This document shows positions 51,574 through 60,076 of a stretch of 64,000 nucleotides of DNA, one piece after another. Position 1 is the stretch's first letter, and the number at the start of each line of letters is the position of its first letter. The notes under the pieces are model-generated. The model was given only the letters and a program-made list of their open reading frames with translations. It ran no database searches and was not told the DNA's origin. A program made the position numbers and the translations under genes. Origin of the DNA: an uncultured bacterium (GTDB lineage: Bacteria; Babelota; Babeliae; Babelales; Babelaceae); the NCBI GenBank assembly GCA_963713855.1, contig OY970209.1:224001-288000 (forward strand), in the 5' to 3' direction.

Positions 51574-52476
51574 ATGAAAAAGGAGAAAACCATGCTTACA
51601 CGTTTTAACGCCTGGTTACTCCTAGCATGCATAAGTGTACTAGGGATAACAGATGCAAGAACTACAAAAGTGCATGTCCCTATACGCGTTGACGTTGTTG
51701 TAAGCGCAGGAAAACCCCGCACCATAAGGGGAAGAACTACAGCCAGAAGATCACCCAAAAGATCCTCAAGGGCTAAAGCGCCGTCAAAGCCAAAAGCTAG
51801 ACCATCAAAGCCTTCTAAGCCTTCAAAAAAACCGGCAGAGACTAAAAAACCTAAGGCACCAACAAAGCTAACGCCGAATGAAGAAGCCGGTTTAAGAATT
51901 CAATTAGCGGCTGTGACACAGCAACTTAACAACTTGACCGTCCAGTATCGACTTATTTCGACTAAGGCAAACGAAGCTGAAAAACTGAGCGCCGAACTTC
52001 TTGCAACAAAACGTTTGCTTGACGCAGCAAATCTTGCACTTATGCAGCACAAGCCAGCCGGAACTGTTTTAGAATCGATTAAAAATCTCAATAAAGAAAT
52101 TGATATTCTTACTTTCCAGCTCGCAGAACAGCGCAAGGAAACTGAACATCATAAAAGTAAATCCAAATCGCAAGAGCACGATATTGAGCTTTATAAAACA
52201 GCAATGGCAAAACATATCAGCAGTGATGAAAAATTCCTCGAAGCTTACGAAGCTTATCAAAACTTATTTTCAGGAATACTTGAACATACTCCCCGAGCAG
52301 TTCGAGAAGCTCGGCAAAATCTTTTTGATAGCTGGAAAGTGTATGTCGATGCCATAGAAAGACTCAATCGCATATTAACACAAGTAGGTATGCTTGTGCG
52401 TCCAGTAAAAGTTAACCCTCTCTATCAAAACCTTTTTGAAGGCGCACTTAAAGAAAGTGAAGTTAGCTCCAGCTAG
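51574..52476 (+). CDS. Secreted protein with an Arg/Lys/Pro-rich segment and coiled coil
   Basis: AGGAG RBS, signal-like segment, RRSPKRSSRAKAPSKPK linker. Confidence 0.75.
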   Translation: MKKEKTMLTRFNAWLLLACISVLGITDARTTKVHVPIRVDVVVSAGKPRTIRGRTTARRSPKRSSRAKAPSKPKARPSKPSKPSKKPAETKKPKAPTKLTPNEEAGLRIQLAAVTQQLNNLTVQYRLISTKANEAEKLSAELLATKRLLDAANLALMQHKPAGTVLESIKNLNKEIDILTFQLAEQRKETEHHKSKSKSQEHDIELYKTAMAKHISSDEKFLEAYEAYQNLFSGILEHTPRAVREARQNLFDSWKVYVDAIERLNRILTQVGMLVRPVKVNPLYQNLFEGALKESEVSSS

Positions 52477-55400
52477 CACCTGATTCCGCCGCTTCAGATT
52501 GCTGCGATGAAAGACTTGCTGTAGTGCCTCCAGAAAGATTAGGTACCGACACTCCTTGTTGTGCCTGACCACCAGTAGTTGAGATTGATGATCCTGAAGC
52601 AGTTTGACTGCTTGAACTAGCACTTTCTGAGGTTTGGGTAGGTGATGTTGCTTGTCCAAGTTTTGCAAAAAGCTTTTGCGAGGCTTTAATTTTAGTGAGC
52701 AACGCTGCTGGCAGTGTTCCTGTGGCCGACTGGTAAAGGCTCAAGATGCGCGGATCAAGTGTTTGAAGAACCTGGCCACTTTGCCCATACACGTTAAAGC
52801 TTACAAGGCTTATAAGAGCATCAGGTTGAGATCCCGAAAACGGCATGCCATAATTAAGCACCGAGCCATCAGTCTTTACGGTTGCTACAATAACATAATC
52901 TGTATAGCCTTTCTGGGAAAGCGTATATATAAAGTGCCCAGCTAAGATATCGTCAATACTTGTAGCTGAAAGTTTAAACGGACCGAATGTGTACGCTGCC
53001 ATACTTTCTTTAGCATATGAAGTTCTTGCCGCAGCAATAGCATCAGAAACGGCGGTGTTTATATAACTATTAAGCGCAGCATTTTGTGCAACATACGTTG
53101 GCCAAACATTTGCTTGGTACGCTACAGGTGCACCATTTGCATTATAAACCGTACCGCTTACAAGACTTACAAGAAGGGACGGAGCTACTGTACTTGTAGG
53201 GCTTATGCCCATGCTTATTTGAAATGGTGGCACATTAGACATGCTATTGGCTAACACAACCCAATCCTTCTTGCCCGTTTTAGATGTTGTATATATGTAA
53301 TGCCCTTTAAGAATTTCGAATGCGTCAGCAGCCTCTAAATCTTTATAAGCACCAAGCGTCGGCCTTAAAAGCTTCTCATAAAGTGCTTGGTAACTAGCCG
53401 AGCGCTGGATTTCGGTAGTTGTAGGCCCAGAAATTGAAGTACTTGCTGATGTCGGTTCGATTGCAACGGCTGGAGTTACCATAGTAAATTCGATAGATGC
53501 TCCAGAATAAATGATACTCAAAGGAACCTTCGTAATCGCTTTTCCGTCAGCATCTGTCGCAGGAATTGGCACAACGGTGACAGCTGTAGCGGAAGGTGGT
53601 GTCTGGCCTTCTTGCCATACTTGAACAGAAAGTGAGCTACCAGAAAGCGTACCACGCATTCTATAAAAGACACCTTCGATAAAGTCGGGAGCTTTTATAG
53701 TTTGAGCAGCCCAACCTTCAGATTGTGCGCCCGTACTTACTTCGTGCTGGTAGACACCAAGGCCACTTTGCCCAGGCGCATTTTTAAATACGATCATTTT
53801 AGCATGGTTATAACGATCAAGCGTTGACCGGTGATCTTTAAGAATGCTTGCGGCATCCAAAGGCAATCCTCCCAATCCAATACCCACGTAATAGGATCCA
53901 AGAAGATATATAGGTCTTATACGCGCTTCAAATACTAGCGGCTGATTTGGAAAATAGGGCACGTCCTTACTAATGCTTTGCAAGAACCAAAAACGCTCTA
54001 CGGCATTTCCTTGAGAGTCTTTGAACGTTGCAGGAAGCTGGGCTACTTCTTGAGCAAAAATGCCACGAGCAGGCTCATAAAGTACCATACCCTGTGACGG
54101 GTTCAAATTCACAAGTCCCGTTTTATAACCATACAAGTCTCCAACATCACCCACTTGAACACCCTGAGCATTCGTCTGTAACAATTGGCCCTGATATCCA
54201 CCTAAAGCGTACTCCTGCTGAGTCACAAAAAGCTGTAAGAGTTGGTTATAAAAGTTTTGATAAAATCCTAAACCTATTTTTCTATTGCCTATTTCTGAAC
54301 TTAATTCCTCTTTGACTTCTTTTATAAGCGCATTCTGCATGCCCTGGCCCACGACTTCTTGGTTTTGTGTCCAGATGGTAAAGTTTTCAAGGTAGTCATT
54401 GATTTCTTTATCGACTGCTGCTACCTCCTCATCTTGTTGCTCACCGCTCATAATCATAAAAGCTCCGAAAGCAAGCGTTGCTCCTAGGCCAACTGCAAGC
54501 CAAATACCGCTGCCGCCAGTTACTATAGCAACACCAAGCAAAAGTCCAACAGTAACTACTTCTGATATAAGGCGCCTATGGGATTCAAGCTCGCTATGCA
54601 CCTCATTATAGAAGTTACTAATACCTCCCGCATTAATCCAGTCCTCAGGGTTAAGAACAGCAGCAAGAGCGGAGCCTACATCTATAACGACATCGGTTAT
54701 AAACTTAATAAGATAACCAACGGCCTGGATGAGACCTTTAATAACGTCTTTAATGATACCTATACCAACAACGATAGTCTCTAGAATGGAAGCTACGATA
54801 TCACGACCTAGAATTTTCCAATTATTTAAGAAAGCAGCTCCCTCTCCCCCACCGGTAGCAACAGCTATGATTGCACTTGTCAATATGGAGACAGCATCTC
54901 CAGTAAGTTTTGTCGCTACATCACCGATAAGCCCAGCAGCTGAACCTATAACCGTTCCGAGAGAATCTGCGACCGTATCGAGCATACCTTCGTAGTCTGA
55001 TGCAAGATTCGGGTCATTCATAATCTCACCGACGCCTTCCAATACAAGGTCAAGCGGTGCGCTACTAATCGATTGGCCAGCTTTTATTACGTTGCTAACT
55101 ACGTCTTTTACGTCACTGCCGAAATTCTTAATGTCTCCATCGACTGCATCTCTATAAGCTTCAGCCATATGTAAAGCCTGCGAAGGTGGAATATGCTGAA
55201 TGAGGGTTGCAAGCCCTGATTGATAGTAAATCACAGCTCCTTCGTCTTTTATAACATCGATGACATCCTTGGCAGTCGCAAATATGGCCTCTCCCACATT
55301 TTCGAATGCATTGGCAATGCGTTCTCCTACGTGCTCAATCCAATCTACAAAGCCCTGCTGAGTTATACGTTCGTTGTCATAAGCACCGGCTGACGGAGGT

Positions 55401-58317: not shown

Positions 58318-60076
58318 TTATGAGCCTCCTTGTTGAGCGTTATCAGATGCATATTGACCAATTCCTGCATATCCTCCTTCTGGAGACTCAGGAGGACTTA
58401 CTGGGGGAGGTTGTTCCTTCTTTGTACTTCCGCTAGGCTTTGTAACTGCTTTCATGTATTCGTTATGCGTTGATTGCATCAAATCTAGCTCTTCCTGACA
58501 TGCCGAAAGAACGCTTCCGGTGCACGATACATTTTGCGATGCGCAGATGATGCGTTCGACACAGGGGCTTAAGATATTCATGCCAACAAGTCGTGTATAA
58601 TCGCCCAAGGCTGCACCAAGCATATTTATAATACCGCCAACCGAGTTAAGCCAAGCTGGCTGCTTTTAAAATTTCCTGAGCGTATGGCCCGTTAACGGTA
58701 GGTAAATTAATAAAGAGCTTAACAGCGCTTTCTAGATTTCTTGTAACTTGTCGTTGAGCATCTTCAAAGTAAGCTACAACGTACCCTAATGGAACACCTG
58801 GAAGGTAGGCACCTTTTTTATCGGGATTGGGTTGTCCACGACTTGTCGCTTGAGTACCTGCTTGTGCACTTTTTACAAGCTGCGCTGGCCAGCCGAGAAG
58901 CAGAGTATCTTTTGGTAAATCTAAAGCCAGGCGTGGGATTATACGCAGAGCTCGCAAAACGGTTGGGTCATAATGAAAAAGAGGTGGATTAATAGGTTTA
59001 GCTTTAGCTCTCAGTTGGCGCAAAGCATTTACCTTGGCCTTCGTTTCATCATTATTGGTATTAGGCATAGCAGCAATGGCACTTGCTTGACGCTTAAACG
59101 GATTTTGCTCCATAACAGATGCTATGTGCGTAGCATAACGAACAAAGAGCGAAGAGCCAGGAATAGGGCTTTTAGTATCTGGTTGATTTAAAGAAGAGGT
59201 GTACTGCTTAAAAAAGTTTAGCACTGTACTCAGGGCATCCAGGTATGTTTTTTGTATTTCTTGCAGACTTTTGTGAGCAATTTTTTGTGCTGGCAATTCT
59301 AAATCACCCTGAAAAAAAGGTTTTGAAAAATCTCTTACCAAAAAGAGCGGATCTGCCGTCAAATCATGTTGTAACATGAGGGCGCCCACCTTAAGCCCAA
59401 AATGTTGGGGTATTAAGGGCTGATGGTGTGAGCACACAAAAAAGAGCTGCGCTTGAATGACGTTAAGTAAATGAGCAACAATGAGTGATTTTTTATTAAA
59501 AGCTTCAATAGGCTCATCAACCAAGTAATCATAGACCGTATTTTTGTGCATGAGCGTAAAAGTACTGTATAAGCTCGTCAAATAGCGATAGATATCGCTT
59601 AAAGCCATAAACTGAAACTTGCGGAATATCGGTATAAAATAACTGAGGTCTATATCTTTTTTTGTAAATGCTCCAGCATTTTTTAGCGCTGCTAATACAG
59701 CATCAAAAGCGCTCGAAAGCCCGGAAGCATCTGGAAATAATGCGCTACCACCCGGATGATAGACTTGAGCATGTGCTCTAAGGGTCGTGCTAATTTGACC
59801 CCGTTGAGCAGCTAAAACTGGTGCAAAAGCAATGTTGTTTTTCGTCGTGGCGGAATCTTTAATAATCAAATTTCCCGCGGGAGTCAGCCGAGCTGTAGCA
59901 TATTGCGTACAGGTTAAATCGCCTACTCGGCTTTGCGGATTTGAGACAGGTATCCGGCACACCTCGCCTGTATCTACAGATGATGGAACTTTTTGAGCAA
60001 CTGCTTTAGAAAAAAAGACGGTAATTAAGAGAATAATTTTTAAAAAAGGAGACTTTGCAAATAGCATGCCATGCAA
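58318..60076 (-). pseudogene. Secreted hypothetical protein split by a 1-nt frameshift near 58665 (ORFs 58646-60076 and 58318-58623)
   Basis: Removing one base from ATTTTAAAAG (minus strand) gives a continuous EILKQPAWLNSVGGIINMLGAALGDY. Confidence 0.65.

Follow-up and report, generated by a model that had tools for sequence, protein, structure and literature searches.

In a 64,000-nucleotide stretch of DNA from an uncultured bacterium, probably of the phylum Dependentiae/TM6 (GTDB phylum Babelota, family Babelaceae; assembly GCA_963713855.1, contig OY970209.1, positions 224,001 to 288,000), referred to below as the window, three coupled genes on the minus strand, here called c1, c0 and c2 in their order along the operon, encode exported proteins that fit no known family. 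We find that the trio behaves as a cassette that is present or absent as one unit at a fixed chromosomal slot, and that two of its products, c2 and c0, have in common a module in which a hydrophobic segment leads into a helix of ~70-80 residues and then into a head modelled as a concanavalin-A-like (ConA-like) beta-sandwich. Because of this common module, we read c2 and c0 as lectin heads on helical stalks that rise from a membrane anchor, and we propose, with a probability of roughly 40%, that the trio is a clade-specific, Sec-exported, membrane-anchored stalked-lectin complex for host contact. It probably mediates such contact rather than forming a proven pore.

Structure of the c1-c0-c2 operon

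The genes of the operon and the parts of c1 are laid out as follows (aa, amino acids; ORF, open reading frame).

58318-60076, minus strand: c1, one gene in two ORFs with one frame break, ~580 aa
58646-60076, minus strand: first part of c1, an ORF of 476 aa, likely start ATG at 60068, with the signal-peptide-like MLFAKSPFLKIILLITVFFSKAVAQ
58664-58674, minus strand: frame break of c1, one extra base in a T4A4 run, inside GAAATTTTAAAAGCAG, relative to the same-genus genome G153 (DNA alignment)
58318-58623, minus strand: second part of c1, an ORF of 101 aa in another frame, with a Cys-containing conserved C-terminal domain, LGDY..L....ILSPC...II.....C
56779-58317, minus strand: c0, 512 aa, with signal-like N-terminus, helical N-domain, hydrophobic patch, long helix and ConA-like head
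52463-56782, minus strand: c2, 1439 aa, its start overlapping the c0 stop (ATGA)

At the junction of c1 and c0 the stop codon TAA is followed directly by ATG (TAAATG), with AAGGAGG just upstream, and c0 and c2 overlap in ATGA. The N-termini of c1, c0 and c2 are all hydrophobic and signal-peptide-like, both by eye and in a Kyte-Doolittle scan. The preliminary description of this DNA, made from the sequence alone, had reported three coupled minus-strand genes with these same two couplings, Sec-like signal peptides on all three products and a first protein of about 585 aa after repair of a frameshift, and the present analysis agrees with it throughout. The 476-aa and 101-aa ORFs together match, end to end, single homologues of 515-587 aa; the former aligns with the N-terminal ~470 residues of these proteins and the latter with their C-terminal part. 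The frame break itself may be a real mutation or, judging from its homopolymer context, an assembly error. Breaks were also seen elsewhere in the family: the c0 homologue of one genome (G195, L026:9940-11739) lies in two ORFs of 401 and 194 aa, and several other c0 matches carry one in-frame stop; like the split in G195, these may be further breaks or assembly errors.

The c1 protein is helical and, in the alignment of its homologues, has four conserved Cys residues in its C-terminal domain, a pattern that would fit an oxidising, exported location. Profile comparison with hhalign found no relation of c1 to either c2 or c0.

Anatomy of c2 and c0 and their modelled heads

The anatomy of c2 was read from an alignment of 15 sequences. 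AlphaFold2 (AF2) models were made for c0 (14-row alignment; mean predicted local distance difference test score, pLDDT, of 68.6, with the C-terminal domain mostly at 75-94) and for c2 residues 441-1439 (26-row alignment; mean pLDDT 63.6, with residues ~840-1380 mostly at 80-95). The resulting features, from the N-terminus of each protein onwards, are these (TM, transmembrane helix).

56723-56782, minus strand: c2 signal-peptide-like N-terminus (MKFFIAHFLLLLFSSVTMYA)
55463-56605, minus strand: c2 conserved N-terminal domain, residues ~60-440, with invariant Y105, S211, W214, Q215, W290, Y319, P420 and D429
54581-55357, minus strand: c2 acidic Gly/Ala-rich amphipathic helical region, residues 476-734 (259 aa), hypervariable and indel-rich
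54413-54580, minus strand: c2 hydrophobic two-helix hairpin with flanks, residues 735-790, HRR - TM1 - TGGSG - TM2 - GEQQDEE
54143-54412, minus strand: c2 long helix ('stalk'), residues ~791-880, with the conserved segments LGFYQNF and NPSQGF..LY...R..F.QE.A..P at its end
53468-54142, minus strand: c2 predicted ConA-like lectin/glucanase-fold beta-sandwich, residues ~881-1105
52673-53395, minus strand: c2 two C-terminal repeats, about residues 1130-1370, with motifs ILxGxYIYT...DYV...SL[IV][ST]GxVY
52466-52672, minus strand: c2 Ser/Thr/Gln low-complexity tail with the conserved end motif ..RQ..A.......GG[WF]
57841-57909, minus strand: c0 hydrophobic/amphipathic patch, residues 137-159 (NILFDLLLNVVIVSGEQFAQELF)
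57625-57837, minus strand: c0 long helix, residues 161-231 (71 residues), from the AF2 secondary structure
56809-57558, minus strand: c0 predicted ConA-like lectin/glucanase-fold beta-sandwich, residues 254-503

In c2 the core of the hydrophobic hairpin, VVTVGLLLGV...MIMSG, occupies residues 741-779 (54446-54562) and reaches 19-residue Kyte-Doolittle means of 2.1 and 2.0 over its two arms, and the pattern [H/E]R[R/E/Q] - TM1 - (T/S)GG turn - Gly-rich TM2 - GGxQxDE is found in all 15 c2 homologues. The turn is tight in 12 of them; the other three, all from family f6, have an insert of 92-320 residues at this point, made up of acidic, Ala/Glu/Thr/Lys-rich low-complexity sequence (L029:4098-9764, L030:9667-14418 and L033:4116-8876). 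The region before the hairpin, residues 476-734, contains 22% Gly+Ala and has an isoelectric point (pI) of 4.2, with values of 4.1-5.8 for the same region across the 15 homologues, and the hairpin is followed in the AF2 model by a single helix of ~79 residues (fragment positions 350-428, corresponding to residues 790-868). The preliminary description had placed about 250 aa of Gly/Ala/Val/Asp amphipathic helices ahead of a long hydrophobic hairpin at 54445-54560, and both elements were recovered, the hairpin at nearly the same coordinates and with the long helix behind it.

In c0 the corresponding segment is weaker: the patch is modelled with pLDDT <50 and in the window protein stays below the Kyte-Doolittle transmembrane threshold. 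A profile-profile comparison by hhalign aligns c0 residues 117-502 with c2 residues 721-1105 (probability 78%, E 1.7e-5, 329 columns) and matches the patch and the 71-residue helix of c0 to the hairpin and helix of c2, bearing out the earlier observation that the 512-aa protein has a shorter hydrophobic patch and a coiled coil in the equivalent place. By this comparison c0 looks like a shortened paralogue of the centre of c2. A prediction of a complex between c2 residues 721-1110 and c0 residues 117-512 scored 0.02 against a mark of 0.32, which gives no verdict, and it is not used here as evidence.

The heads of c0 and c2 are confidently modelled as ConA-like lectin/glucanase beta-sandwiches. 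For the c0 head (residues 254-503) the best structural match is the family 66 carbohydrate-binding module (CBM66) 4b1m_A, with a VIA-align Z of 13.7 and a root-mean-square deviation (rmsd) of 2.9 Å over 158 aligned residues, followed by the thrombospondin C-terminal domain at Z 13.5 and by ERGIC-53 and an archaeal legume-lectin domain at Z 11.6; its Foldseek matches have E values of 1.7e-5 and weaker. The c2 head (residues ~880-1105, pLDDT ~80-95) matches 3o12 (Foldseek E 1.2e-6; VIA-align Z 12.9, rmsd 3.0, 167 aligned) and CBM66 4b1m_A (VIA-align Z 12.8), with the C-terminal domains of glycoside hydrolase family 43 (GH43), ERGIC-53 and legume lectins next. From the Foldseek viral library, LamG/ConA-like jelly rolls alone were retrieved. 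The best fold matches as a group (CBM66 4b1m, the function-unknown proteins 3o12 and 3mep, GH43 C-terminal domains and legume lectins) thus fall at Z 12.8-13.7, rmsd 2.9-3.2 Å and 158-167 aligned residues. ConA-like CBM modules, in contrast to c2, come without the hydrophobic hairpin and the long helical attachment.

The remaining parts of c2 are described by their sequence and modelled secondary structure. The N-terminal domain has invariant aromatic and polar residues in the 15-sequence alignment, with no recognisable catalytic set, and had no match in Pfam, PDB or the ESM Atlas. The helical region upstream of the lectin head is predicted to form helices, at pLDDT <50. The two C-terminal repeats are ~110-120 residues each, with about six strands and two helices, and are absent from 3 of the 15 homologues.

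That no family could be recognised, as the preliminary description had stated, holds for all three proteins across Pfam, NCBIfam and PDB sequence profiles. Pfam and NCBIfam searches with four window ORFs at E up to 1 returned only noise (Sm_multidrug_ex at 0.76, RGS at 0.094), Pfam searches at E up to 0.01 with 15 homologue rows of c2 and 16 of c1 gave only single-member noise matches, and PDB sequence profiles built from the c2, c0 and c1 alignments gave nothing below E 0.01. The weaker PDB profile matches (designed helical repeats, apolipophorin-III, alpha-synuclein) lie in the Gly/Ala helices and were discarded as compositional. No Pfam lectin, CBM or DUF1080 model matched the lectin heads in sequence, and the ESM Atlas held no usable match for c2 residues 21-445 or for the intact c1 of the same-genus genome. 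A word-index homologue search returned six proteins, none with a name or Pfam domains; a related-locus search with the window ORF protein P0001 as sole query returned one locus; and some weak long matches of the c0 profile (P0150, P0156, P0159 and P0160) proved unrelated to c2. We found no published description of the operon, and the orthologue tables in the supplements of PMC4776705 may list its genes as conserved hypotheticals. The lectin fold is a known one. New to the libraries searched are the three protein families and a three-gene cassette in which a Sec signal, a hairpin, a stalk and a ConA-like head are predicted to be joined.

Distribution and conservation of the cassette

Matches to c2 occur in 45 of the 201 genomes of a phylum sample, and matches to c0 and c1 in 47 and 46, respectively, of the 151 genomes of an order sample, with a c0 profile search again giving 45 of 201; the trio is present in ~22-31% of the sampled genomes. 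Without exception the matches belong to one set of families (f2, f4, f5, f6, f17, f19, f20 and a few genera of f1). In the c0 profile search none came from the 66 genomes of f3 or the 23 of f10, and within the window's own family the trio occurs in 3 of 28 genomes and is missing from the other 25. In a collection of 1.84 billion proteins the c0 profile retrieved 173 representative proteins (131 at E ≤ 1e-30), and on the strength of this profile the c0 family is confined to its own clade. Both c2 and c0 are single-copy in the window's own genome, a single contig of 1.52 Mb.

For synteny, ~19 kb around the match was taken from 14 genomes picked among those with matches, and all ORFs were clustered. 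The order c1-c0-c2, on one strand and with tight or overlapping junctions, is kept in all 15 loci (the window and the 14 fetched), which together with the matching phyletic patterns of the three genes provides the conserved co-occurrence on which the preliminary description had made its proposal depend. A gene for an M23 peptidase lies divergently upstream, next to c1, in 12 of the 14 fetched loci, and a uvrC-like gene just downstream of the trio in 9 of the 14. In two operon-less genomes, G019 (C5:41387-43976) and G048 (C2:560587-563193), the M23 and uvrC-like genes lie side by side in divergent orientation, ~150-175 nucleotides (nt) apart; in the other three of the five operon-less genomes examined, one of the two genes was unmatched or the two were far apart. 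Because M23 and uvrC-like genes adjoin directly in G019 and G048, we regard the trio as one cassette that comes and goes at a fixed slot between them, and these neighbours are positional rather than functional partners.

The cassette also evolves quickly. Between the window and the same-genus genome, identity is 51% for c2, 43% for c0 and 55% for c1, compared with 71% for a secretin and 80% for ClpB, and among the fetched loci the length of c0 varies between 404 and 1054 aa and that of c1 between 460 and 1392 aa. In family f5 (L031, L032 and L034) long helical inserts expand c1 to 1183-1392 aa and c0 to 801-1054 aa, with c2 at ~1400-1700 aa. It is because the cassette is accessory and fast-evolving, with large lineage-specific expansions and gain and loss of domains, that we favour host contact over a housekeeping role.

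Several other features of the window lie near the operon. Downstream, the uvrC-like gene (47678-48967, minus strand) is short, 429 aa, with only the GIY-YIG and UvrC RNase H-like domains; it overlaps the start of clpB (45123-47681, minus strand) by 4 nt, and in several genomes these two genes are found together on the downstream side of the operon. A plus-strand gene at 51574-52476 converges on c2, the 3' ends of the two genes overlapping by 14 nt. Its product of 300 aa has a signal-like start, a coiled coil and a basic stretch of low complexity rich in Lys, Pro and Ser, and G153 has a homologue in the corresponding position. Immediately upstream of the operon lie two ankyrin-repeat genes (60245-62731 and 62767-63906, minus strand), the 828-aa product of the first of which starts with a hydrophobic, signal-like segment (MRTYIFLLLVATSSLMG). 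Further away, at 29381-38459 on the minus strand, is a cluster resembling a type II secretion or type IV pilus system, with secretins of 972 and 1003 aa, a PilM-PilN fusion-like protein of 526 aa, a 184-aa ORF and a GspC-like PDZ protein; the two secretins fit the two gspD copies that the available part of PMC4776705 gives for all TM6 genomes.

Candidate readings: stalked lectins, envelope tether or pore

Under the stalked-lectin proposal, the signal of c2 would be cleaved on export and the hairpin would then fix the protein in a membrane, the choice of which we infer; the long helices of c2 and c0 would act as stalks, and their heads, to judge from the modelled fold, would bind a glycan. The favoured ligand would be glycans of the host cell or of its vacuole, so that the complex would serve attachment, uptake or host contact during infection of protists. 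As a third exported partner, c1 would presumably assemble with c0 and c2. As background on export, the available part of 10.1101/379388 reports signal peptides on 44% of C. destructans coding sequences and discusses Sec as the sole route of export.

The closest architectural likeness is to ERGIC-53/LMAN1, VIP36 and Emp47p, in which, as in c0 and c2, a ConA-like lectin head stands on a helical stalk with a membrane anchor. In VIA-align, lectins of this type score Z 11.6 (1r1z_A) and 11.4 (8jp4_A) against c0 and 10.9 and 10.8 against c2, at 6-12% identity. They are, however, eukaryotic cargo receptors with the order head, stalk, single TM, whereas the order in c0 and c2 is reversed, from hairpin to stalk to head, and the likeness in fold and architecture does not point to common descent.

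Several points weigh against the stalked-lectin proposal. A ConA-like fold is no proof of sugar binding. The relation of c0 to c2 depends on one profile comparison, at 78% probability, and on the common predicted fold. The c1 gene is broken in the window genome, so that the system may be decaying there or the assembly may be wrong, and the true nature of the c2 N-terminal domain, of c1 or of the C-terminal repeats could change the picture. Most directly, a strongly hydrophobic hairpin that follows a Sec signal would by default halt in the bacterium's own inner membrane, and since such an anchor in a diderm cell would leave both large domains in the periplasm, they would be beyond reach of the host.

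This last point leads to a different reading, which we consider somewhat unlikely, though the nearest competitor to host contact: that c2 and c0 are inner-membrane-anchored periplasmic rods whose heads bind peptidoglycan or outer-membrane glycolipid. They would then make up a tether or spacer of the envelope, or a complex associated with the cell wall, and would play no direct part at the host. The hairpin may be merely an inner-membrane anchor, as its combination with a Sec signal, at Kyte-Doolittle means of ~2.0-2.1, looks like a stop-transfer sequence, and the acidic turn inserts of 92-320 residues in three homologues would easily be placed in the cytoplasm. The two secretins of the window give the genome a diderm-like character, and the M23 peptidase gene beside c1 in 12 of the 14 loci could suggest a link with the cell wall. 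That adjacency is positional, however, the M23 gene standing beside the uvrC-like gene where the cassette is missing, and a part of the cell's own envelope is hard to reconcile with the trio not having been found in most genomes of the order (all of those in f3 and f10 and 25 of 28 in its own family, with the profile search included) and with its evolving faster than the secretin. By the positive-inside rule for membrane topology, moreover, positive charge is expected on the cytoplasmic side, whereas the HRR motif lies on the would-be periplasmic side of the hairpin and the turn has no positive charge.

The interpretation with which the preliminary description had accounted for these genes, a multi-component pore or translocon, is supported in part, with the pore itself neither demonstrated nor disproved. 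There is a conserved unit of exported proteins, and a hydrophobic segment followed by a long helix is common to two of them; no tie of the proteins to pore families was found, and the only confident folds are the ConA-like ones. As a rival to stalked lectins, this reading holds that the proteins are exported by Sec and a type II system, that the acidic helices and hairpin of c2 and the patch of c0 insert when the phagosome acidifies, and that the resulting pore serves escape or effector delivery, with the lectin heads for targeting. We think it unlikely. A narrower version, on which we would place a little less weight still, is that the trio is a lectin-guided alpha-helical translocon, a new class limited to some Dependentiae lineages, Sec/type II-exported and acid-triggered, in which the heads would dock on the phagosome membrane and the c2 helices and hairpin, with c0, would open it for escape or for the passage of bacterial proteins, in a phylum without type III or type IV secretion systems or similar injectors.

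The arrangement of c2 speaks for a pore. A hydrophobic hairpin within amphipathic helices is the layout of translocation and pore domains such as those of colicins, the diphtheria toxin T domain and type III translocators, and in c2 the hairpin is set amid acidic amphipathic helices that total ~260 residues (pI 4.1-5.8 in 15/15), with a long helix after it; the operon, too, holds paralogous components, c0 and c2. The low AF2 confidence of the helical part could reflect a metastable domain, and a shallow alignment would account for it just as well. The SctE translocators (IpaB/SipB/YopB) share with c2 a hydrophobic hairpin of two helices between stretches of coiled coil or helix, a feature that is not family-specific, but c2 has a cleavable Sec-type signal instead of a type III one, is much larger, carries lectin domains and comes from a genome in which SctV had no match. 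The ClyA-family toxins (XaxAB/YaxAB, Hbl, Nhe) resemble the trio in being an operon of related components with a hydrophobic hairpin in a helical protein, and Hbl and Nhe components carry Sec signals; these toxins lack a lectin beta-sandwich, however, c2 is 3-4 times larger, and no Pfam match (Hbl/Nhe, HlyE or XaxA-type) was obtained. In the structural searches with c2, whose helical region is modelled at pLDDT <50, the match lists were taken up by the lectin head. In chlamydial Inc proteins, which come from an obligate intracellular bacterium, a bilobed hydrophobic domain of two helices joined by a short turn precedes a coiled coil; these proteins are small, secreted by a type III system and without Sec signals or lectin domains. 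The likeness of c2 to them, by description, lies in the hairpin and coiled coil, and c2 differs in its Sec signal and lectin domain.

More generally, no sequence search linked any of the proteins to a family of pores or translocators (at E up to 1 with the window ORFs and up to 0.01 with the homologues), nor was there a meaningful fold match. An IpaB N-terminal fragment did match c2 (rank 46, Z 9.6), through a helix pair with pLDDT <50, and was discounted as it stands among generic coiled coils and under the noise level for helical models. The long inserts at the hairpin tip in three of the 15 homologues could not cross a target bilayer and are a misfit with tip-first insertion.

The secretion context bears on a pore in both directions. 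FHIPEP/SctV (PF00771) had no match in the window's own single-contig genome (91% complete), the control being positive in 4 of 14 known genomes, and no VirB4 was found there, yet many signal-bearing ankyrin proteins are encoded next door, which speaks for a pore. For the phylum, the available parts of 10.1101/379388 and PMC4776705 mention only Sec, type II secretion and a possible type IV pilus. The presence of the operon is, however, unrelated to the load of ankyrin-repeat proteins, which are likely effectors. Counted as matches rather than genes, and with at most 150 candidates scored, Ank_2 matches number 211 (G048), 187 (G079), 52 (G019), 16 (G045) and 1 (G010) in operon-less genomes and 199 (G052), 83 (G177), 30 (G029), 9 (G001) and 1 (G008) in operon-bearing ones, and because of this the trio cannot be a general gate for ankyrin effectors.

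A toxin of the AB type is the least probable of the readings, and we regard it as very improbable. Here c2 would be a single-chain toxin, its N-domain the active part, its helices and hairpin the translocation domain and its lectin head and C-terminal repeats the receptor-binding part, with c0 a non-toxic paralogous partner. The resemblance to clostridial neurotoxins and their non-toxic non-haemagglutinin (NTNH) partners is one of order: an N-domain, a helical region with a hydrophobic segment, a lectin-like jelly roll and more C-terminal domains, with a paralogue (c0) encoded just upstream. Foldseek gave long alignments of c2 to botulinum neurotoxin and NTNH, for example to 8c8g_A at E 1.7e-6 over 748 columns, but with template-modelling scores of 0.08-0.13 and rmsd >20 Å, and we gave them no weight outside the jelly roll, which alone superposes (8c8g_B, Z 9.7, 157 residues, rank 42). 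In addition, c2 has no sequence similarity to the neurotoxins, the zinc-protease motif HExxH occurs in none of the 15 c2 proteins, the c2 N-domain has no catalytic-looking invariant set, and, unlike mobile toxin loci, c2 is a single-copy gene that keeps its chromosomal site from family to family.

The stalked-lectin complex remains the reading we prefer, and its interest lies in the biology of the group. The Dependentiae are widespread and live as obligate parasites of protists, and very few of the proteins with which they interact with their hosts have been characterised by experiment. If c2 and c0 are instead an envelope tether, the cassette would bear on how reduced diderm cells keep their envelope together. 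As exported proteins for host contact, the ~2,500 residues of conserved, family-less sequence encoded by c1, c0 and c2, with two predicted stalked lectin heads among them, would provide a concrete candidate for the host contact of part of the phylum.

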